A stretch of 64,000 nt of DNA from Isosphaeraceae bacterium (GTDB lineage: Bacteria; Planctomycetota; Planctomycetia; Isosphaerales; Isosphaeraceae): contig CBDIDH010000002.1 of NCBI GenBank assembly GCA_965277595.1, positions 2,893,737 to 2,957,736 on the forward strand, given 5' to 3'. Under the pieces are notes generated by a model. It was not told the DNA's origin, did no database searches, and worked only from the letters and a program-made list of their open reading frames with translations. The translations under genes and the position numbers were made by a program. Shown here one piece after another: positions 3,714-39,205 of this stretch; the stretch's first letter is position 1; each line of letters begins with the position of its first letter.

Positions 3714-4235
3714 CTAATCCAGATCAATAATCACGTCGTCATCGTGAGTGCCCGGCTTCGAGGCGAGCAGCTTGCGCCAGCCGGCATCGTCATCGCTGTC
3801 ATCGTCAAGGATCTCCAGGGCCTCGGCCTTACCCTCGGAGGACGGGGGCGGGAACCCGGAATCGGATTTCGCGGGCGCGGCCTTGGCAACCGCCACGGGC
3901 CGACCGGTCCCCTTACCAGGGTCCGGTCGTTCCGAAGGGCCAGGGACGTCGTCGGGTCCAAGATAGACCCGCATCTTGTAGCCGCCGAGCGTGATCCGGT
4001 CTTCGGGCAAGAGCGCGGCCCAGCGAATCTTTTGACCTTTGACCTTGGTTCCGTTCGTGGTGGCGAGATCGCGAATCACGAGCAGTCCGTCGGTTTTGAC
4101 GACCACGCAGTGCCGCTTCGAGAGGCTATGGTGATCAATCACGACGTCGCAATAACCCTTGCGTCCGATCACCGTGAGGTCCTTCGTGATCGGAATGGGT
4201 GGGTCCCCGTTACTGGGCACTAGCTCGGCTTTCAT
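3714..4235 (-). CDS. FHA domain-containing protein (173 aa) with acidic C-terminal tail
   Basis: ATG at 4235 inside the long ORF 3714..5426. LTVIGRKGYCDVVIDHHSLSKRHCVVVKTDGLLVIRDLATTNGTKVKGQKI is a typical FHA core. Confidence 0.82.
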   Translation of the reverse strand: MKAELVPSNGDPPIPITKDLTVIGRKGYCDVVIDHHSLSKRHCVVVKTDGLLVIRDLATTNGTKVKGQKIRWAALLPEDRITLGGYKMRVYLGPDDVPGPSERPDPGKGTGRPVAVAKAAPAKSDSGFPPPSSEGKAEALEILDDDSDDDAGWRKLLASKPGTHDDDVIIDLD

Positions 4236-4721: not shown

Positions 4722-7289
4722 ATGAACCGCTTCTTTGCCTTCGGAGTGGGAGCCTGCGTTGCACTGACCGCGGGTGGTCACCTGAAATCGGCGTCGGCAC
4801 AACAAGACGTGCCGCCGCTGGAACAACCCGCCGCCGTGGCGCCGGACCGTACCCAGACCGACCTCCAGCCGGCCCGCGAGGCCCCCGAGCAACTCGCCGC
4901 GGCCGATCCCGACGTGAATCGCCCCATTCGACCCTTGACCGAAGGGCCTCTCCACGAGGCCTTCCTCTCTCCGGCGAAGGATCGTGACGCGGTTCACGTC
5001 GAGAAGGCCCCTCCCCCGCCGATCGTCGAGCGTCCCGGCGTCGATCCGCCTGATCCCCGCGCCCAGTGGATCGAGGGTTACTGGGAATGGGACACCCCCC
5101 GCAAAGATTACACCTGGGTAACCGGTACCTGGCGCGTCGCGCCTCCGGGCCGCTTCTTCGTGAACGGTTACTGGAAGCGAGACGATCAGGGCTGGTATCG
5201 CGTCCCCGGCTTTTGGTCCGATCGCAAGACCGACCGTCTTGACTTTCGCAAGGACGGCCCGCCGACCGAACATCCCGCCGACAACCCCGGAGAATCTCCC
5301 GGCGCAGACTATTTTTACGTCCCCGGCCAGTATTTTCCCGACGGCGATGGCGTTGTCTGGAAGGCGGGCTACTGGGCGAAGGTCCAGTCCGGTTGGTCGT
5401 GGGTTCCCGCGCAGTGGGTCAAGCAACCCGAAGGCTGGACCTTTCAGGAAGGCTACTGGGACCGAACCCTTGAAGATCGCGGAACCCTCTTCGCCCCGGC
5501 ACAGGTCGCCGCGTCGGCCCGCGATGGCAACACGGTTTATCAGCCCTACACTCAGGTTTCACCTCAGAGTTACGGCCTTCTCTACGGGGCCTTCGGCCGT
5601 CCGAACTCCAACTATGACGGCTACCCCGGTTGCTACTACGACCCGACCGGACGTTACTACGGTTACGCCCAGTATGGCACGATCGGCAACTATTACGGCT
5701 ACCTTGATTACCCTTACTACGGCTCGCTTGGCTATCCCTATATCGCCCAACCCCTGAACTACGGCTACGGCGGGTACGGTAGTGGCTACGGCGGATATGG
5801 AGGCGGGTACGGCGGGTACGGTGGCTATGGAGGTGGTTACGGCGGGTACGGTGGGTATGGCGGTGGTTACGGCGGGTACGGTGGTTATGGCGGCTACGGT
5901 GGATTTGGGCTTGGAGGGTTGTTCGGCGGCCTCTTCGGGTTCGGCTATGGCGGACTCGGTTATGGCGGGCTTGGACTCGGCTACGGCGGCCTCGGCTACG
6001 GCGGTTATGGTGGCTACGGCGGTTATGGTGGCTACGGCGGATTCGGTGGCCTTGGTTACGGTGGTTTCGGCTACGGCGGTCTTGGTTTTGGCGGCCTCGG
6101 CTTTGGAGGTTTCGGCCTGGGACTGGGCCTTGGATTGGGTCTCGGCGGTTTTGGTTATGGTGGCTACGGCGGTTATGGTGGCTACGGCGGTTATGGAGGA
6201 TATGGAGGTTATGGCTACGGCGGCTATGGTCGCGGCGGATACGCCAATGGCGGCTATGGACGTGGTTATGGCAACGGTGGCGGCTACGGCCATCATTACC
6301 CCTTCTATCCTGGTGGAAATCACGGGGGTGGCTACGGCAACGCGAACCATAACAACTTTGCCTCGGCCAATTCCCGGTTCGGTATCGGCGGATCGAACAT
6401 CCGGGGCGGTTCGGTGCTGAACAACCGAAGCGTGGCCATGGGCCGGAATTCAGGAATGATGTCCCCGCCGTCGTCCAGGGCGTATGCGAACCCGTTCATG
6501 CATAACACGTCGATGAGCGGTGCCGGTGGAAATGTCCGGCACGCGGTTGGCGGCAATGGCATGTCCGGTTCGAACTGGCACGCCGGTTACAACGGAGTTC
6601 AGCACTCGGGCCTTCAGCAGCATTCGGCCGCTCGACCCGCGTTCAACTCGGGTCTCGGCAACAACGGACTGAACCACGCGGGCGGCCTTGGTGGCCTTGG
6701 TGCTGGTGGCCTGAACCACGCGGGCGGCCTTGGAGCCGGTGGCTTGAACCACGCGGGCGGCCTTGGCGGTGGTTTGAGCCATGCAGGTTCCGGATACACG
6801 CCTCGGGCCGGGGGTATCGGCGGAGGCCCGGCGATCAGTCGCGGCGGAATGCCGGGGCTGGGGGGTGGAGCGTTGGGAAATCAGGCCCACATGGCGAATG
6901 GGGGCGGTCTGAACCATGCCGGTGCTCTGGGGGCGACGATGCATCCCGGCGGTGGCAATGCGGGACTCGGCGGCCTGGGCGGACGTGGTTTCTCGCCTCC
7001 GGTGCATGCGGGAGGCGGTTACGGCGGTTTTGGAGCCGCTCCGCACATGGGGGGCGGCTTCGCGGCGGCTCCGCACATGGGTGGCTATGGCGGACACGTC
7101 GGCGGTCTCTCACCGGCGCATCTCGGTGGAGGTTATGGCGGTGGAGGTCATGTCGGCGGTTTTGGTGGATTTAGCGGCGGCGGCCACATGGGCGGCGGCG
7201 CGGTCCACATGGGGGGTGGCGGCGGTCATATGGGTGGCGGCGGCGGCCACATGGGTGGCGGTGGTCATGCCGGTGGCGGTCACCACTAA
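4722..7289 (+). CDS. exported YXWGXW-repeat protein with giant Gly/Tyr- and Gly/His-rich low-complexity region
   Basis: ATG at 4722, preceded by GGAG with a 7-nt spacer. Signal peptide MNRFFAFGVGACVALTAGGHLKSASA. W/Y repeats (GYWEWD, TGTWRV, NGYWKRD, AGYWAKV, EGYWD). Then (GYGG)n, (GGLNHAGGLG)n and a C-terminal (GGGGHM)n. Confidence 0.75.
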   Translation: MNRFFAFGVGACVALTAGGHLKSASAQQDVPPLEQPAAVAPDRTQTDLQPAREAPEQLAAADPDVNRPIRPLTEGPLHEAFLSPAKDRDAVHVEKAPPPPIVERPGVDPPDPRAQWIEGYWEWDTPRKDYTWVTGTWRVAPPGRFFVNGYWKRDDQGWYRVPGFWSDRKTDRLDFRKDGPPTEHPADNPGESPGADYFYVPGQYFPDGDGVVWKAGYWAKVQSGWSWVPAQWVKQPEGWTFQEGYWDRTLEDRGTLFAPAQVAASARDGNTVYQPYTQVSPQSYGLLYGAFGRPNSNYDGYPGCYYDPTGRYYGYAQYGTIGNYYGYLDYPYYGSLGYPYIAQPLNYGYGGYGSGYGGYGGGYGGYGGYGGGYGGYGGYGGGYGGYGGYGGYGGFGLGGLFGGLFGFGYGGLGYGGLGLGYGGLGYGGYGGYGGYGGYGGFGGLGYGGFGYGGLGFGGLGFGGFGLGLGLGLGLGGFGYGGYGGYGGYGGYGGYGGYGYGGYGRGGYANGGYGRGYGNGGGYGHHYPFYPGGNHGGGYGNANHNNFASANSRFGIGGSNIRGGSVLNNRSVAMGRNSGMMSPPSSRAYANPFMHNTSMSGAGGNVRHAVGGNGMSGSNWHAGYNGVQHSGLQQHSAARPAFNSGLGNNGLNHAGGLGGLGAGGLNHAGGLGAGGLNHAGGLGGGLSHAGSGYTPRAGGIGGGPAISRGGMPGLGGGALGNQAHMANGGGLNHAGALGATMHPGGGNAGLGGLGGRGFSPPVHAGGGYGGFGAAPHMGGGFAAAPHMGGYGGHVGGLSPAHLGGGYGGGGHVGGFGGFSGGGHMGGGAVHMGGGGGHMGGGGGHMGGGGHAGGGHH
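5757..6300 (+). repeat. in-frame short tandem DNA repeats encoding (GYGG)n/(GLGYGG)n
   Basis: Reiterated GGCTACGGCGGTTATGGT-like units throughout. The same region yields Ala/Thr/Val-rich shadow ORFs in other frames. Confidence 0.9.
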
Positions 7290-34800: not shown

Positions 34801-34990
34801 CCGCGCGGCTGGACCCGCCACGTTTGCCGAGGTCCAGGACAAGTGCTCGAACGCGATCCGCCGCAAGAAGATCAACCGCGAGACAACCGCGTTCATGGAC
34901 AAGCTTCGAAGCCATACCGTTGTCCGCACGGTCTTCGACGATCCCGACGTCACTCGAACCTCGGCCGAATCGGTCAGCCCCCGCCGTTGA
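31844..34990 (+). CDS. lipoprotein peptidyl-prolyl isomerase (SurA/PpiC-like) with ~750-aa Pro/Ala-rich spacer
   Basis: ATG at 31844. Lipobox LALAGC. The C-terminal region has a SurA-like chaperone segment and a PpiC rotamase (FAKLASTESHG...GGLW...GQISPVIEGPTSYHILIV). Confidence 0.75.
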   Translation: MNRHVVAGMLGLALAGCSLDRSLSSRTRPTLAPVELTPPLKTIHETINQENPGVDTDMVRAGHPVAATSPMLASATVPTPTAPRQPVATVQEPTLAIPPQTPAPVTEAPEPNSVTVQTPPRPAPAPESTPTPEPAPAPPTDATPRPQLATVNGTPTGRERPAPFARLFGRARPRARATAPAQVVATSPAETATAVAVATPSADAAVEVKTEVKPDAPKFDRPAPDPEMTAPIEADPPAQVQTESPAPAVPESTPAPVVSVPPAQGNPLLEPPPVASASAPPQAAPVVSAPAPVPAPVSVSAPAPAPAPAPAPVLVNPPEARGAAPVVVDLPSVESATPKGVSRDPLLGANPDIMPDLNLGSTPKPPVNDAAVAPAQAPAALPVPDPVPAPAPVPAPEPLAAEPTQTPAPAPAKVLAAKTDEAALPGPVESPAESAASAAPPVIHLAPPTDLESSPAQTEPAPTPSPAAPGSTSADPLLGPNPEVMPSIETPPVRKPAAETPPVSAPATLEKSTSADPLLGPNPEVMPSIETPPVRKPAAATPGVSLPTDPAATPAKVELPAAEASKDAPSASLESQGAAMTPTPIPSLSPSVPTAGETPTPIPPASAPKPAPPAPASDPTPKTNEPKTTTRDPLLGADPDIMPTITPPPAKKAETIAEPVELPPLSQPGASNTVAPERASGFASMPVSAPGGRDTNTNTNDAQTVRPPLKMPDEPTAVRSKAATRTVFVLGQPVAWVGDEIITLHELRVVFRQRCKGMALNQLSEDDLYRAKKTILNDMIDRAMVLQEAKRELKDPKKFQKFMEVADLQFYEEEVPTLIRQAGVANIHELKKKMTDRGESLDEIREQFRLEFLSRGYMEQKLGPKMKVDLLEMRDYYKAHLRDFDQPPQVTWREVLVEVDRCKSQAEARAKADALLARLRHGEDFAKLASTESHGPNRSAGGLWKTSPGSYSVPAVNSALETLPIGQISPVIEGPTSYHILIVEARRAAGPATFAEVQDKCSNAIRRKKINRETTAFMDKLRSHTVVRTVFDDPDVTRTSAESVSPRR
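33257..33475 (+). repeat. near-identical 123-bp in-frame tandem duplication
   Basis: ACCTCGGCCGACCC(C/T)TTGCTCGGGCCGAACCCCGAAGTCATGCCCAGCATCGAGACGCCGCCGGTTCGCAAGCCGGCCGCGG occurs at 33257 and again at 33380. It encodes TSADPLLGPNPEVMPSIETPPVRKPAA twice. Confidence 0.9.
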
Positions 34991-37133
34991 TCGAACAAGG
35001 TGTTTGTGATCGTTCGAGCCGATCGGCTTCGCGGTTGTCGGCCTCGGCATTCGTTGAATCGTGTCGGATGGCATGCGCCTGGGCGCGTCGGCGAAACGCC
35101 GCGGCATCGCGCGGATCAATGCGAATGGCCTCGGAATAATCGGCGATCGCCCTGGCGTGGTTGCCCGCCTTGAGGTAGGCGTCGCCTCGGGCGAGAAAGT
35201 CCGCGCCGGAGATCGGTCGGAAGGCGGGATCTTGCACGGCGTTCGGATCAAGGGCCAGGGCTTGTCGAAAATCGGCGTTGGCCGAGGCGATGTCGCCCAG
35301 CTTGACCAGGAGTTCCGCTCGGCAGACGTACGGTTCCGACCAGCCCGGCGCGAGGCGAATGGCGGCGCCAAAGTCCTGAATTGCCCGACGATTCTGACCG
35401 TTTCGGGCCAGGACCCAGCCCCGGCATTTGTAGGATCGGACGAGGCTCGGGTCGAGGGCGATCGCGCGGTCAAAGTCCGCCAGCGCGAAAGGGTCCTGGA
35501 CGCGCTGGAGGTACGCCTCGCCTCGCATGTTGTAGGCCCAGGCGTGCCCGGGAGCGAGCCGGATCACCTCGGTATACATGTCGATCGCCGCATCGAGATG
35601 ATTTTGCGAAAGCTGTTCCCAGGCCGAGCGCATCCGGGCCTCGATCGCCTCGGGGCTTATCGCCCAGCGCACCGGAACGAACGTCCGATCCCCGGGGCGA
35701 ACGTACGCGTCCTGGTCGTACAGGACCTCCGCGCCTCGCTTGACCTGAACTCGATGGCGGCCGCCGCCGAGGTTGACCCGACCCGTCCGCCGCGAATCGA
35801 TCTGGATCGACTCTCTATCGACTCGGAGTTCGACTCCCATCTCAAGAACCTCGACGACGATCGTCCCTGGTCTCGTCGCCAGTCGAACGGCGAAGACGCC
35901 CGCCAGAACCGCGAGCAAGAAAATCAGGGCCAGAAGCCGACGCCGATTCAACCAGCCATTGCGTTTAACGGACCGGCTGCCGCCGATCGTGCTGGACGGG
36001 GCCGTCCAGGTCTCGCTCCCTCGCGCCTGGGACGAAACAGGGTTCGCGATCGCCGTCCCGAAGTCGGAGGGAGGGAGGTCCGGTAGCCGCGTCCAGTCGG
36101 AAAGATCGGCTATCGACGCGAAGGCTTCGGCCGCGCGGAAGGGGGCAAGGGCCTCGGCCACGGCGGCGGCGGTGGGAAAACGGTCTTCCGGGCGTTTCGC
36201 CATCAACCGGCGGACGACCGAACCCAGGCCCCGAGGGATGCCCGGCCGGAGCGCCTCGACGGGCGCGGGGTCGATCTCGCGGTGCTTGACCAGTTTTTCC
36301 AGAGGCGTGCCACCGGGAAAGGGGGGACTTCCGACCAGGAGGAAGTAGAGCGTGCAGCCGAGACCGTACAGATCCGACCGCGCGTCGGCCTGGCGGATGT
36401 CCATCGCCTGCTCGGGCGCGAGGTAGTCGGGCGTCCCCAGAACGGAGCCGATTTGTGTCAACTCGTCGGCAACACCTTGAGGCGCAAAGGCGAGGCCAAA
36501 GTCGAGAACCTTGACGACCCCGTCCTCGTCGGCCCTGAGAAGGTTAGACGGCTTGATGTCGCGGTGGATCAGACCTCGATCGTGGGCATGCGCCAGGCCC
36601 AGAGCGGCCTGTCTGGCCACCTCGGCGGCGGCGGCCGAGGAGAGCGGACCGCGATCGCGTACCAGACGCGCCAGGTCAAGCCCGACCACGTACTCCATGA
36701 CAAAGTAGTGGACCCCCTCGGCCTCTCCCGCGTCAAAGGCGGTGACGATGTGAGGGTCGGAGAGTCGACCGGCCAGCTCGACCTCGCGATAAAAGCGGCC
36801 GACGGCGTCGGGGCGCGACAGCCATTCGTGTCGGATGATCTTCAGGGCGACCAGCCGCTTCATCCGGCGATGACGAGCCTTGAAGACCGTTCCCATCCCG
36901 CCCTCGCCCAGAGGCTCAAGCAAGACGTACGCGCCCAGCCAGAGCCCCGACCGATCGCCCTGTAAAAGCCGGTCGATCTGGTAGCGCGTCAGCCAGGCGC
37001 GACCGACAAGCTCCTCGGCCAGGAACGTCGGATCGTCGTCCGAGGCGTGGGCGGAATCTCGAACCTGGGCGATCTGATCGTCTGTCAGCAAGTCGGCGGC
37101 GGCAAGGGCGTCAATGAGGTCGCGACTGGTCAT
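34974..37133 (-). CDS. serine/threonine protein kinase with TM segment and C-terminal TPR repeats
   Basis: Hanks kinase motifs (GEGGMGTVFKA, HRDIKPSNLL, DFGLA, GTPDYLAPE), a hydrophobic segment (LLALIFLLAVLAGVFAV), then TPR-like repeats. ATG at 37133 preferred over the TTG at 37157. Confidence 0.9.
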   Translation of the reverse strand: MTSRDLIDALAAADLLTDDQIAQVRDSAHASDDDPTFLAEELVGRAWLTRYQIDRLLQGDRSGLWLGAYVLLEPLGEGGMGTVFKARHRRMKRLVALKIIRHEWLSRPDAVGRFYREVELAGRLSDPHIVTAFDAGEAEGVHYFVMEYVVGLDLARLVRDRGPLSSAAAAEVARQAALGLAHAHDRGLIHRDIKPSNLLRADEDGVVKVLDFGLAFAPQGVADELTQIGSVLGTPDYLAPEQAMDIRQADARSDLYGLGCTLYFLLVGSPPFPGGTPLEKLVKHREIDPAPVEALRPGIPRGLGSVVRRLMAKRPEDRFPTAAAVAEALAPFRAAEAFASIADLSDWTRLPDLPPSDFGTAIANPVSSQARGSETWTAPSSTIGGSRSVKRNGWLNRRRLLALIFLLAVLAGVFAVRLATRPGTIVVEVLEMGVELRVDRESIQIDSRRTGRVNLGGGRHRVQVKRGAEVLYDQDAYVRPGDRTFVPVRWAISPEAIEARMRSAWEQLSQNHLDAAIDMYTEVIRLAPGHAWAYNMRGEAYLQRVQDPFALADFDRAIALDPSLVRSYKCRGWVLARNGQNRRAIQDFGAAIRLAPGWSEPYVCRAELLVKLGDIASANADFRQALALDPNAVQDPAFRPISGADFLARGDAYLKAGNHARAIADYSEAIRIDPRDAAAFRRRAQAHAIRHDSTNAEADNREADRLERSQTPCSINGGG

Positions 37134-37330
37134 TGTCAAGAACGTCCCCGGCGGCAAAGGGGGGTTAAGTTGCTTGATCGGGGTTTCGAAACACGTTCTC
37201 CCCGAATTATCATGCCACCGCAGACGTTGATTTCACGAATTTTCAACCGAAGTCACGAGAAACGGCGTGTCAAGGTGAGCAAGTCCGGTCCTTCGCGTTT
37301 GGCCCGGACCTGCTCGATGAATTGGGCGAA

Positions 37331-37534
37331 TCACTGATGGTCATAAAAGCCGTGGTCGCACTTGCAATAGTTGCCCGATCCTCGAAACTTCGAACAATCG
37401 CACTTCCGGCACTGGCCGTAGCCGTAGGCCGTCGAATTCCGGGCCTCGACCGGCAGGACCGTGAAAAGGCTGCCGAGAAGGCTAAGAACGGCCACGGCCA
37501 CGAGCTGAATCGAACGACGCCTTGCATGGGTCAT
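37331..37534 (-). CDS. small exported Cys-rich peptide (67-aa precursor, ~36-aa mature)
   Basis: ATG at 37534, 9 nt after AAGGAG. Signal peptide MTHARRRSIQLVAVAVLSLLGSLFTVLPVEA. Predicted mature peptide RNSTAYGYGQCRKCDCSKFRGSGNYCKCDHGFYDHQ. Confidence 0.5.
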   Translation of the reverse strand: MTHARRRSIQLVAVAVLSLLGSLFTVLPVEARNSTAYGYGQCRKCDCSKFRGSGNYCKCDHGFYDHQ

Positions 37535-37694
37535 CCTGGCAAACTCCTTGGATTTGGGAAACAAGGTCAGGTGAGCGGTCGCCCGCGTCAGGCGGTCAAC
37601 CGGACGAAGCTTCGTTTTCAAACCAGCGGACTCGAAACGCATCAGGGATTCATTGATGACTTCACAAGAAGGAACCGATCCGACAAGCCGAGGC

Positions 37695-38261
37695 TCAATC
37701 GCCGACAACGCCAAGGCCCGCCGCGGCAAGACTGGAGTCTCCGCCCCAGTTATCGTTGGCGAGTTGATTTCGGGTCGTCAGCGTGCTCAGGCCAACTTCC
37801 GAGGAATAGGTGCTTGAGGCGGCCGTGGTTGGATTCACGACCGTCGTCGGCGTGGTTCGGCCACCGGCGTGAGCGGCCAGGTAAAGGACGTCGTAAAGCA
37901 TGTCGTACTGAAGCTGAGCCGTCCCCCCCTTGAAGTTGGCGATGGCGGAAAGCCCATCACGCTTGAGGAAGTTGTTCAGGTTCGAGATTGAGGTTAACTG
38001 GCCGATCACGTTGCCGGCCGTCGCGGTGCCGTGATGGACGGCGATCTGAACGTAGGCCGAGAGCAAGGGCTTCGCGAAGTAGGCCGCGATCGCCTGGTCG
38101 GCCGCGATCACCTGGCTGGCGGTTACCGTGGAGAGGACCTGTCTTGATTCCAGACCTTCGACCCCAGGCCGTGAACGGCGCGAGGTTGTTGCGCTGACCT
38201 GGGTGGTTGAGCTGGCGCGTTCGATCGTCGCGGAGCCGGCGAGGTTGTCATCGACGTTCAT
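37695..38261 (-). CDS. hypothetical protein (188 aa) with N-terminal RR...GLESRQVLS motif
   Basis: ATG at 38261 after AGGAG. Ala/Thr/Ser-rich; no family recognised. Confidence 0.5.
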   Translation of the reverse strand: MNVDDNLAGSATIERASSTTQVSATTSRRSRPGVEGLESRQVLSTVTASQVIAADQAIAAYFAKPLLSAYVQIAVHHGTATAGNVIGQLTSISNLNNFLKRDGLSAIANFKGGTAQLQYDMLYDVLYLAAHAGGRTTPTTVVNPTTAASSTYSSEVGLSTLTTRNQLANDNWGGDSSLAAAGLGVVGD

Positions 38262-38341
38262 CAAGGTCTCCTGGTTTTCGAGAAGCGAGGTCGTGGTTTG
38301 TCTCCGACCGACGGGGGTCAAACTCAAATCGTCGATCCTCA

Positions 38342-38365
38342 TACGGACGACTTGAAAACTGTTCC
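38342..38365 (-). promoter_or_regulatory. candidate ECF-type promoter (GGAAC-N15-CGTA) facing the 188-aa gene
   Basis: The minus strand reads GGAACagttttcaagtcgtcCGTA, about 75 nt upstream of the ATG at 38261. It lies in the gap shared with the divergent ECF sigma gene. Confidence 0.3.
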
Positions 38366-38446
38366 AGCAAATCACAAAAAAATTTTGTCGGCCCGGGCGC
38401 GCCGTCTCGCTAGACTCTTTTTGAACAATCGGAGGGGACTCGAACT

Positions 38447-39205
38447 GTGACGAGCGACGGACCCGAGGCGCGCATCAGCCAGATTTCAACCCTCTGGGCC
38501 GAGGTGCTTCGTGCCCATGAAGGGCCGCCCGATGAGGCTCGGGAAGCTCAGCGTCTTCTTTTGCAGCGATACGCGGCGCCGATCTACCGCTACCTGAGAG
38601 GAGCCTTGCGCGATCCCGATGCCGCCGACGAGGCATTTCAGGACTTCACCCTCCGATTCGTCCAGGGCGACTTCCGCCGTGCCAACCCCGAGCGCGGTCG
38701 CTTTCGCGCCTTCTTGAAAACCGTGCTCTATCATCTGGTGATCGACCACCAGCGACGGTCTCGGCGGCAGCCGTCGACGCTGACGATCGACCCGGCCGCT
38801 TCGCCCGAGATCACGCAGATCGAAGCGGACCTTCGATTCACGGCCGCCCTGCGCGAGGAACTGATGAGCCTGGCCTGGGAGGCTCTCGCCAACCTTGAGC
38901 GTCAAACCGGCGACCCGCTTCATACCATTTTGCGAGCCAGGACCGAATTTCCCGATCTTCGCTCTCATGAGCTGGCGAATTGGCTCGTCGGTCGGCTCGG
39001 TAAAAACGTCTCGCCGCAATGGTTCCGCAAGAGGCTCAGTGAAGCCCGAGCGAAGTATGCCGACCTCTTATTGTTGGAAGTAGCCCGATCACTGCCGGAG
39101 ACCGCCACCGTGGCCGATCTCGAAGACGAGTTGATCGACCTGAAACTGATCGAGTATTGCCGGGACGCCCTGTCAAGGTGGCGCAAGAACGCGCCCCTTT
39201 CGTGA
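38447..39205 (+). CDS. ECF-type RNA polymerase sigma factor
   Basis: Region 2-like LLQRYAAPIYRYLRGALRDPDAADEAFQDFTLRFV...FRAFLKTVLYHLVIDHQRR and a region 4-like helix-turn-helix (LRSHELANWLVGRLGKNVSPQWFRKRLSEARAKY). GTG start. Confidence 0.7.
   Translation: MTSDGPEARISQISTLWAEVLRAHEGPPDEAREAQRLLLQRYAAPIYRYLRGALRDPDAADEAFQDFTLRFVQGDFRRANPERGRFRAFLKTVLYHLVIDHQRRSRRQPSTLTIDPAASPEITQIEADLRFTAALREELMSLAWEALANLERQTGDPLHTILRARTEFPDLRSHELANWLVGRLGKNVSPQWFRKRLSEARAKYADLLLLEVARSLPETATVADLEDELIDLKLIEYCRDALSRWRKNAPLS

Follow-up and report, generated by a model that had tools for sequence, protein, structure and literature searches.

The SWIM finger (PF04434), defined by the signature C-x-C-x(n)-C-x-H, sits inside large cytoplasmic proteins, and cross-braced treble-clef fingers such as the RAF-1 C1 domain (CRD) place more than four ligands in interleaved order on a short chain. 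HiPIP, the copper storage protein Csp1 (TIGR04401) and the formate-dehydrogenase-region Tat target (TIGR02811) are small twin-arginine proteins whose Cys-based metal site is assembled before export, the Tat pathway being one that carries folded, cofactor-loaded proteins. The metallothioneins SmtA and BmtA are small, Cys/His-rich, metal-binding peptides of the cytoplasm that hold Zn3-4 clusters. In the reducing cytoplasm of Methanosarcina, cysteine-rich mini-domains are expected to be metal sites. We analyzed a short gene in a 64,000-nucleotide stretch of an Isosphaeraceae genome (the window) whose predicted product has points in common with all of these. The best explanation of the evidence as a whole, which we consider reasonably probable, is that the product is exported and forms a Cys5-His2 mini-finger stabilised by metal, that it belongs to a family not described before, and that in this lineage it is probably linked to an ECF sigma factor and a kinase.

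The reading frame runs on the minus strand from an ATG at 37534 to a stop codon at 37333-37331, and its translation is MTHARRRSIQLVAVAVLSLLGSLFTVLPVEARNSTAYGYGQCRKCDCSKFRGSGNYCKCDHGFYDHQ. The gene and its parts are the following.

37331 to 37534 (stop codon included), minus strand: gene for the 67-aa precursor, recognized from its translation, GC3, synonymous divergence from the metagenome contig L023 and ~35 homologues.
37544 to 37549, minus strand: Shine-Dalgarno-like AAGGAG, 9 nt 5' of the ATG, read directly from the sequence.
37442 to 37534, minus strand: predicted signal peptide, residues 1-31, MTHARRRSIQLVAVAVLSLLGSLFTVLPVEA, in which a hydrophobic h-region lies between a twin/triple Arg n-region and the V-x-A motif for cleavage, read from the sequence.
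37334 to 37441, minus strand: predicted mature peptide, residues 32-67, 36 aa, deduced from the V-E-A site.
37334 to 37423, minus strand: conserved Cys5-His2 core domain, residues 38-67, GYGQCRKCDCSKFRGSGNYCKCDHGFYDHQ, delimited by alignments A3, A4 and A5 and by the AF2 model.

The precursor opens with an RRR n-region, followed by a hydrophobic stretch of ~19 residues and by V-E-A at -3 to -1. The mature peptide has the ligand pattern C-x2-C-x-C-x9-C-x-C-x-H-x4-H (five Cys and two His in 36 residues) and six aromatic residues. An earlier note on this DNA had described a good Shine-Dalgarno sequence, a basic and hydrophobic signal peptide ending in VEA, and a 36-aa peptide with five Cys (CxxC, CxC, x9, CxC) and two His, and each of these is present as described. 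In several homologues (P0013, P0016, P0019, P0026 and P0029) an AxA site abuts the GYG core directly. The database gene call, P0002, is 103 aa long and starts further upstream than the 67-aa form; because the homologues begin near the RR motif, we judged this start to lie too far upstream and the 67-aa model to be the better one.

The codon-position GC of the peptide gene (0.56/0.48/0.72) resembles that of neighbouring genes. Its nearest homologue, P0003 on the 6.9-kb contig L023, has 28 of the 30 core residues in common with it, the core in this comparison being GYGQCRKCDCSKFRGSGNxCKCDHxFYDHQ. At the codon level 13 of the 30 are identical, 15 differ synonymously, one of them a Ser written TCG in one sequence and AGC in the other, and 2 differ non-synonymously (dN 0.078, dS saturated). 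The two signal peptides are almost unrelated except for RR-x-x-IQ. Judged from this alignment, the mature peptide is under strong purifying selection and the ORF is a genuine gene, the pattern lying far beyond chance. A non-functional chance ORF in GC-rich DNA would be in keeping with the shortness of the frame, with the failure to find a paralogue in the 7.56-Mb genome of the window, and with a single-sequence six-frame search of 60 related genomes that returned chance matches only and no relative or orthologue. Against it stand the overwhelmingly synonymous divergence of the core from L023 and the seven residues that are invariant family-wide across Bacteria and Archaea, and this reading is effectively refuted. 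One match from the 60-genome search, L015, proved to be a nucleoside-diphosphate kinase and was set aside.

Exhaustive searches among roughly 15 billion proteins recovered about 35 relatives. A phmmer search of 1.84 billion cluster representatives gave 18 matches at E<=1e-3. With a profile, 24 matches were obtained among 5.8 billion proteins, all of them metagenome singletons without a Pfam domain; their source labels read 'uncharacterized Zn finger protein' in one case and 'hypothetical protein' in four, the rest being unnamed. Four further copies, from Falsiroseomonas sp. HW251, a Brocadiaceae MAG, an unclassified MAG and a Methanosarcina MAG, were detected with a subfamily profile. When 401 planctomycete genomes were scanned in six frames with a profile, only the window copy and one other were found, and a two-sequence alignment search of genome and metagenome contigs for related loci returned nothing. 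The sole match of a back-translated Cys/His DNA pattern across 185,579 species was a 22-codon frame, VCGRCDCSSGRPTGSGCKCDHL, in a Caulobacteraceae MAG (L024:7063-7128), which also shares CDCS and GSG; it has no signal peptide, lies directly after the stop of a membrane-protein gene and is probably a chance match. By these comparisons the family is real and phylogenetically wide, covering Bacteria and a Methanosarcina genome, and it is extremely sparse.

The family is described by a motif that we define here as G-[YF]-G-x-C-x(1-4)-C-x-C-x2-[FY]-x-G-x-[GS]-x2-C-x(1-4)-C-x-H-x4-H, located at or near the C-terminus. The window peptide, which was the query, fits this motif and scores 54.7 bits against the family profile, with all invariant columns present. 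In an alignment of 30 domains G40, C42, C47, C57, C59, H61 and H66 are invariant and C45 and G52 nearly so, as is F50 (F/Y) in a 15-member alignment; four to five aromatic positions are conserved. The C57-C59 spacing is 1, 2 or 4, and the domain nearly always ends one to three residues past the last His. Two metagenome proteins carry the domain in tandem, P0008 (167 aa) with three copies and P0011 (149 aa) with two, joined by TEPTNA-type linkers. The first copy in P0008 is without the cysteine equivalent to C45, which shows that this ligand is dispensable. No model in the Pfam and NCBIfam scans covers the family, and in the literature we found no paper with its motif strings, nor one on exported SWIM-like or Tat Cys-rich peptides. 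The alignments thus place the peptide in an undescribed, very rare protein family. The earlier note was right to recognize no curated family, and its proposal of a secreted-peptide gene, for which it had named conserved Cys spacing in homologues as the test, is supported by the ~35 proteins that keep the Cys/His positions.

From these data we infer metal binding, a fold type, an export route, a mode of regulation and a physiological role for the peptide. The last 30 residues make up a mini-domain, G-Y-G-x-C-x2-C-x-C-x2-F-x-G-x-G-x2-C-x(1-4)-C-x-H-x4-H, ending at or next to the C-terminus, and this most likely folds around bound metal, with zinc as the default guess. The AF2 (AlphaFold) model, with a core pLDDT of about 80-85, has a β-hairpin (F50-C57) followed by a short helix that holds both His. 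In the proposed fold a knuckle, β-hairpin, knuckle and short helix would follow one another, as in treble-clef or SWIM fingers. A set of seven ligands matches neither one nor two standard tetrahedral sites, which counts against the metal-stabilised reading; since seven are present, we suggest one full tetrahedral site together with a second that would be incomplete, either three-ligand or sharing a bridging ligand. A search of solved structures and curated families gave no significant match, and the best sequence and fold matches in the PDB, none of them significant, are all zinc modules.

A secreted peptide of this size might instead be held together by disulfides. On that reading two disulfides would form after export, leaving the His residues and the fifth Cys for receptor binding, and the product would be a bacteriocin-like toxin or an extracellular signal. 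The signal peptide, the small mature size, the strongly hydrophobic, Sec-like signal of the window copy, the eight relatives with Sec or lipoprotein signals, and the surroundings of the distant member P0016 (on contig L026), where other small Cys-rich ORFs with secreted products line up with a Gly-rich peptide, all speak in its favour. We nevertheless consider it improbable. The Cys count is odd and the two His are invariant; 11-12 members have no signal peptide, among them the 58-aa protein of Methanosarcina, a strictly anaerobic archaeon; many others carry Tat signals; and the core layout in the AlphaFold model resembles treble-clef and ββα fingers. For these reasons metal binding is favoured over a disulfide knot, and the preference for metal already voiced in the earlier note holds at the level of the family. 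Moreover, no immunity, export-pump or processing gene is conserved near the gene in the loci compared, and the core is extremely conserved, unlike fast-evolving toxins.

We next compare the proposed metal-binding mini-domain with the described fingers. Among PDB sequences the RAF-1 C1 domain comes closest (E 0.65-1.1), with C-x-C-x-K-F-x2-G-x2-C-x2-C-G-x-x-F-x-x-H aligned. As in C1 fingers, more than four ligands are interleaved along a short chain, and by this analogy two cross-braced sites may be envisaged. There was no match to the Pfam C1 model (of the H-x12-C-x2-C-x(13/14)-C-x2-C-x4-H-x2-C-x7-C type), so the peptide is not assigned to the C1 domains. Three family members also matched FAM221A/B (PF14753, about 109-148), an uncharacterised eukaryotic family, weakly (E 0.015-0.2). 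We take this as no more than a lead: all matches are below the cut-off, neither the window peptide nor its genome has one, and the literature is uninformative on FAM221 function.

The SWIM finger has the local pattern C-x-C-x2-[FY]-x3-5-G-x2-C in common with the family, with another ligand two residues on, and the predicted hairpin-then-helix topology appears to be the same. When the family profile was aligned by hhalign with 14 planctomycete SWIM fingers, taken from Isosphaeraceae and related genomes, a probability of 86% and an E value of 5e-6 (5.1e-6) were obtained over 15 columns only. This alignment places C45-x-C47, F50, a Gly and C57 on the CxC..f..g..C of SWIM and stops before the defining CxH. 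The segment C45-x-C47-x11-C59-x-H61 fits the SWIM signature literally, but hhalign pairs the third SWIM Cys with C57 rather than C59, and C45 is the least conserved of the ligands. Three family members gave sub-threshold matches to the SWIM HMM (E 0.013-0.29; best 11-15.5 bits against a gathering threshold of 19.6), and the window peptide gave none at E<=1. The family differs further in having three extra invariant ligands (C42, H61/H66) and the GYG motif, and in being a free-standing domain of ~30 residues that is often exported. We therefore do not count the domain as a SWIM member, although its sequence appears to have the knuckle-hairpin-knuckle core of SWIM; we see in it a new family of fingers that would work as SWIM and treble-clef fingers do.

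The same features bear on the suggestion of the earlier note that the peptide is metallothionein-like, by which it would serve as a periplasmic metal buffer or detoxifier. It is small, Cys/His-rich and predicted to be exported, and an ECF sigma gene of a kind that often controls metal or envelope stress is its neighbour. With five Cys in 36 residues, however, its capacity would be at most 1-2 ions per peptide, and the scans of Pfam and NCBIfam gave no likeness to SmtA or BmtA, which are Cys-richer. The sparse, fixed ligand pattern, the invariant His, the conserved aromatics and the defined hairpin-plus-helix fold that is predicted point to a structural site of the finger type rather than a thiolate-cluster buffer, so that this suggestion is unsupported and a metallothionein appears very unlikely. 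On the other suggestion of the earlier note, a signalling peptide, the data speak neither for nor against.

Export signals in the family are of several kinds. Of 33 members, 11-12 lack a signal. Among the roughly 21 with one, it is of the Sec or lipoprotein type in 8, and in 12-13 twin arginines immediately precede the h-region, which we count as a twin-arginine signal; the RR, Sec or lipoprotein signals of the homologues sit at the same place as the signal of the window peptide. Canonical RR signals occur in relatives (MNRREFLK, MERRQFIG, MKRRQFLRL and TRRKALK), near-consensus Tat motifs in P0006, P0021, P0026, P0029 and P0033, and P0005 passes the TIGR01409 Tat model with 26.4 bits against a cut-off of 16.7. 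TatC (PF00902, E 5.8e-57) is encoded in the genome of the window. Tat substrates carry a motif of the type S/T-R-R-x-F-L-K ahead of an h-region of moderate hydrophobicity. The window signal itself, with the motif RRR-S-I-Q-L, matches neither TIGR01409 nor PF10518, and its h-region is among the most hydrophobic of the family, with a maximum Kyte-Doolittle mean over 12 residues of 2.63. This very hydrophobic h-region favours Sec for the window copy, and the eight relatives with Sec or lipoprotein signals indicate that Tat is not obligatory for the family. The possibility of Tat export raised in the earlier note thus stands at the family level and finds no Tat model behind it in the window signal; for the window peptide we regard Tat export as a serious possibility, in view of the relatives with twin-arginine signals, the match of P0005 and the presence of TatC.

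In the mechanism that we propose, the signal peptide would be cut after VEA31 and a free-standing peptide of ~36 residues released into the periplasm. Since the sites are thiolate-based, the peptide would probably be loaded with metal in the cytoplasm and exported folded by Tat; as an alternative for the window copy, Sec export could be followed by metal loading in the periplasm. Family members match the HiPIP, Csp1 and TIGR02811 models through their Tat signals, and this likeness does not go beyond the signal peptide: the mature domain, 2-5 times smaller, has no relation to theirs, and RR signals are present in only about 40% of the peptide family, unlike in that group.

The Tat signals also raise the idea of a redox-active metal centre, such as a rubredoxin-like Fe(Cys)4 site, a small Fe-S cluster or a Cu site. 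On this view the peptide would be a miniature electron carrier or redox sensor of the periplasm that leaves the cytoplasm in folded form through Tat, as HiPIP and Rieske proteins do. Such signals are typical of cofactor-bearing redox proteins, five Cys and two His are available, and C-x-C-x-H-G-[FY]-Y-D bears a superficial likeness to the Rieske box II, CPCHGS-x-Y. Yet no redox partner, cytochrome or oxidoreductase is conserved beside any member, no rubredoxin, HiPIP or Rieske HMM is matched beyond the Tat signals, a domain of 30 residues is smaller than any known Fe-S carrier, and the variation of the C57-C59 spacing among 1, 2 and 4 is rarely tolerated by cluster-binding loops. We accordingly hold a redox centre to be doubtful, and distinctly so.

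The signal peptides and the loci likewise bear on whether the gene encodes a RiPP precursor with a modified Cys-rich core, for example one with thioether or sactionine links. The peptide is small and Cys-rich, and P0003 has a very weak match to a sactipeptide model (E 0.13). Neither the surroundings of the window gene nor 10 homologous loci contain a radical-SAM, lanthionine (LanM), YcaO or other maturase gene. In place of a conserved leader the proteins start with divergent Sec/Tat signals, and the combination of an invariant core with variable leaders is the reverse of what RiPP families have. This origin is in our view extremely unlikely.

Returning to the metal-stabilised finger, we examined its gene neighbourhood, in which the following features lie around the peptide gene.

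37695 to 38261, minus strand: orphan gene of 188 aa from the ORF list, co-oriented with and upstream of the peptide gene.
38447 to 39205, plus strand: ECF-type sigma factor gene, candidate regulator (Sigma70_r2, E 6.7e-9; ECF superfamily model, 37.3 bits, just under the cut-off).
34974 to 37157, minus strand: Ser/Thr kinase with TPR repeats (Pkinase, E 8.5e-46, and TPR families), co-oriented and downstream.
37277 to 37315, minus strand: predicted strong RNA hairpin of 12+2 bp with no U-tract, about 15 nt 3' of the stop codon (RNA fold, -25.7 kcal/mol), the only hairpin kept in the centroid.

On the minus strand the 188-aa orphan is thus followed, after a 160-bp gap, by the peptide gene and, after a 173-bp gap containing the hairpin, by the TPR kinase; the sigma gene is divergent, 185 bp upstream of the orphan. 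The hairpin is a possible transcript end or stabiliser according to the RNA fold. Neither a consensus terminator nor a convincing sigma-70 promoter was found on the strand of the peptide gene, and there was no Rfam match around it. The orphan has an N-terminus of the LESRQVLS type, with a basic stretch ahead of these residues, and lacks a classical hydrophobic signal; no Pfam model matches it, and among 5.8 billion proteins it has no homologue but itself. The six upstream regions that we compared contain a single ECF-promoter-like match, GGAACAGTTTTCAAGTCGTCCGTA (38342-38365, minus strand; GGAAC-N15-CGTA), which lies about 80 nt upstream of the orphan gene. Across the peptide and orphan region (37000-38600) GC dips to 0.57-0.60, compared with 0.64-0.70 in the flanking genes. 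The MoxR gene of the window is 78% identical to the MoxR of an Isosphaeraceae MAG, in agreement with a planctomycete of this family.

A divergent sigma gene lies beside the peptide cluster in all three of the closest members (the window, L139 and L023). On L023 the order is kinase and ECF sigma on the minus strand, then LRR, HEAT and peptide genes on the plus strand. On L139 there is a partial minus-strand gene whose N-terminus, MDRHELDAHLSQMSTAWT, carries the signature of the family of the window sigma; the peptide gene comes after a gap of 149 bp and has a HEAT protein behind it. The genome of the window has 36 sigma-r2 genes in 7.56 Mb, which puts only about 3% of positions within 3 kb of such a gene, and linkage in three of three loci by chance is unlikely, with the limitation that this test was post hoc. 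The 27-nt element GTGAGAAACCTCGSCRGCCAACGRAAT occurs exactly twice on L023, where none is expected by chance: at 4161-4187 in the sigma-divergent gap and at 6508-6534, 45 nt before the peptide ATG, both copies lying within a similar stretch of about 55 nt. From its sequence and placement this repeat looks like a duplicated promoter or operator, and its presence in both places suggests co-regulation in L023. The element is absent from the window, no motif common to the upstream regions of the three closest loci was found, and orthologous sigma loci in other Isosphaeraceae have other neighbours and no peptide gene. For these reasons, control of the peptide gene by an ECF sigma factor in this lineage is put forward as a lead only. 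If the lead is correct, the peptide would be wired to the adjoining ECF-type sigma and Ser/Thr kinase module and would be made in an envelope or metal-stress response. The window sigma itself (N-terminus at 38447-38520; L143-L149) is one of a family of Isosphaeraceae proteins, about 250 aa long, that occur in multiple copies, three of them in this genome; ahead of region 2 the family has the conserved N-terminal signature M..E.E.HLSQI.T.WT.V..AH.G.P.

No protein partner proved to be conserved. The likeness between the kinases of the window and L023 is a generic 38% only, the two complete sigma genes of these loci cannot be aligned, the HEAT proteins of L023 and L139 are unrelated to each other, and the window has no counterpart of the coiled-coil protein that neighbours the P0026/P0029 subfamily. 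The neighbourhoods of more distant members are unrelated. In the 'SRGGC' subfamily (P0026, P0029; L029:2098-2478, L031:5564-5884, L029:161-856, L119:4503-4961) this coiled-coil neighbour, common to both members, is secreted and has a length of about 100-126 aa (pairwise E 2e-6), and the P0026 and Falsiroseomonas loci encode secreted proteins with repeated C-x2-G-[DN]-R-E-A-C motifs; no such neighbour of either type occurs in the window. Around P0016, on a low-GC contig (L026:2394-5334), a row of small genes includes three for further Cys-rich proteins with signals (124, 99 and 122 aa) and one for a Gly/Ala-rich peptide of 92 aa, and may be an island of secreted peptides.

An extended version of the metal-stabilised reading would take the family to be free-standing, zinc-finger-like mini-proteins of ~30 residues that are loaded with metal in the cytoplasm, exported folded by Tat and then act as diffusible metal carriers or redox-labile reporters, made in the planctomycete lineage under, and possibly feeding back on, an ECF sigma and Ser/Thr kinase envelope-signalling module. 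We consider this version rather unlikely; if true, these mini-proteins would be by far the smallest Tat cargoes known.

For now the peptide represents a well-supported orphan family without an assigned function. It is a deeply conserved Cys/His domain family with cytoplasmic and exported forms, found in Bacteria and Archaea and absent from every curated library, and it exemplifies the small exported proteins that annotation systematically misses. Through its recurrent linkage to ECF-type sigma genes it provides an entry point to sigma and kinase signalling in Planctomycetes, which is poorly understood. If the peptide is indeed metal-binding and Tat-exported, it would provide a minimal model for thiolate metal sites that survive in an oxidising compartment and a test of the smallest possible folded Tat cargo.
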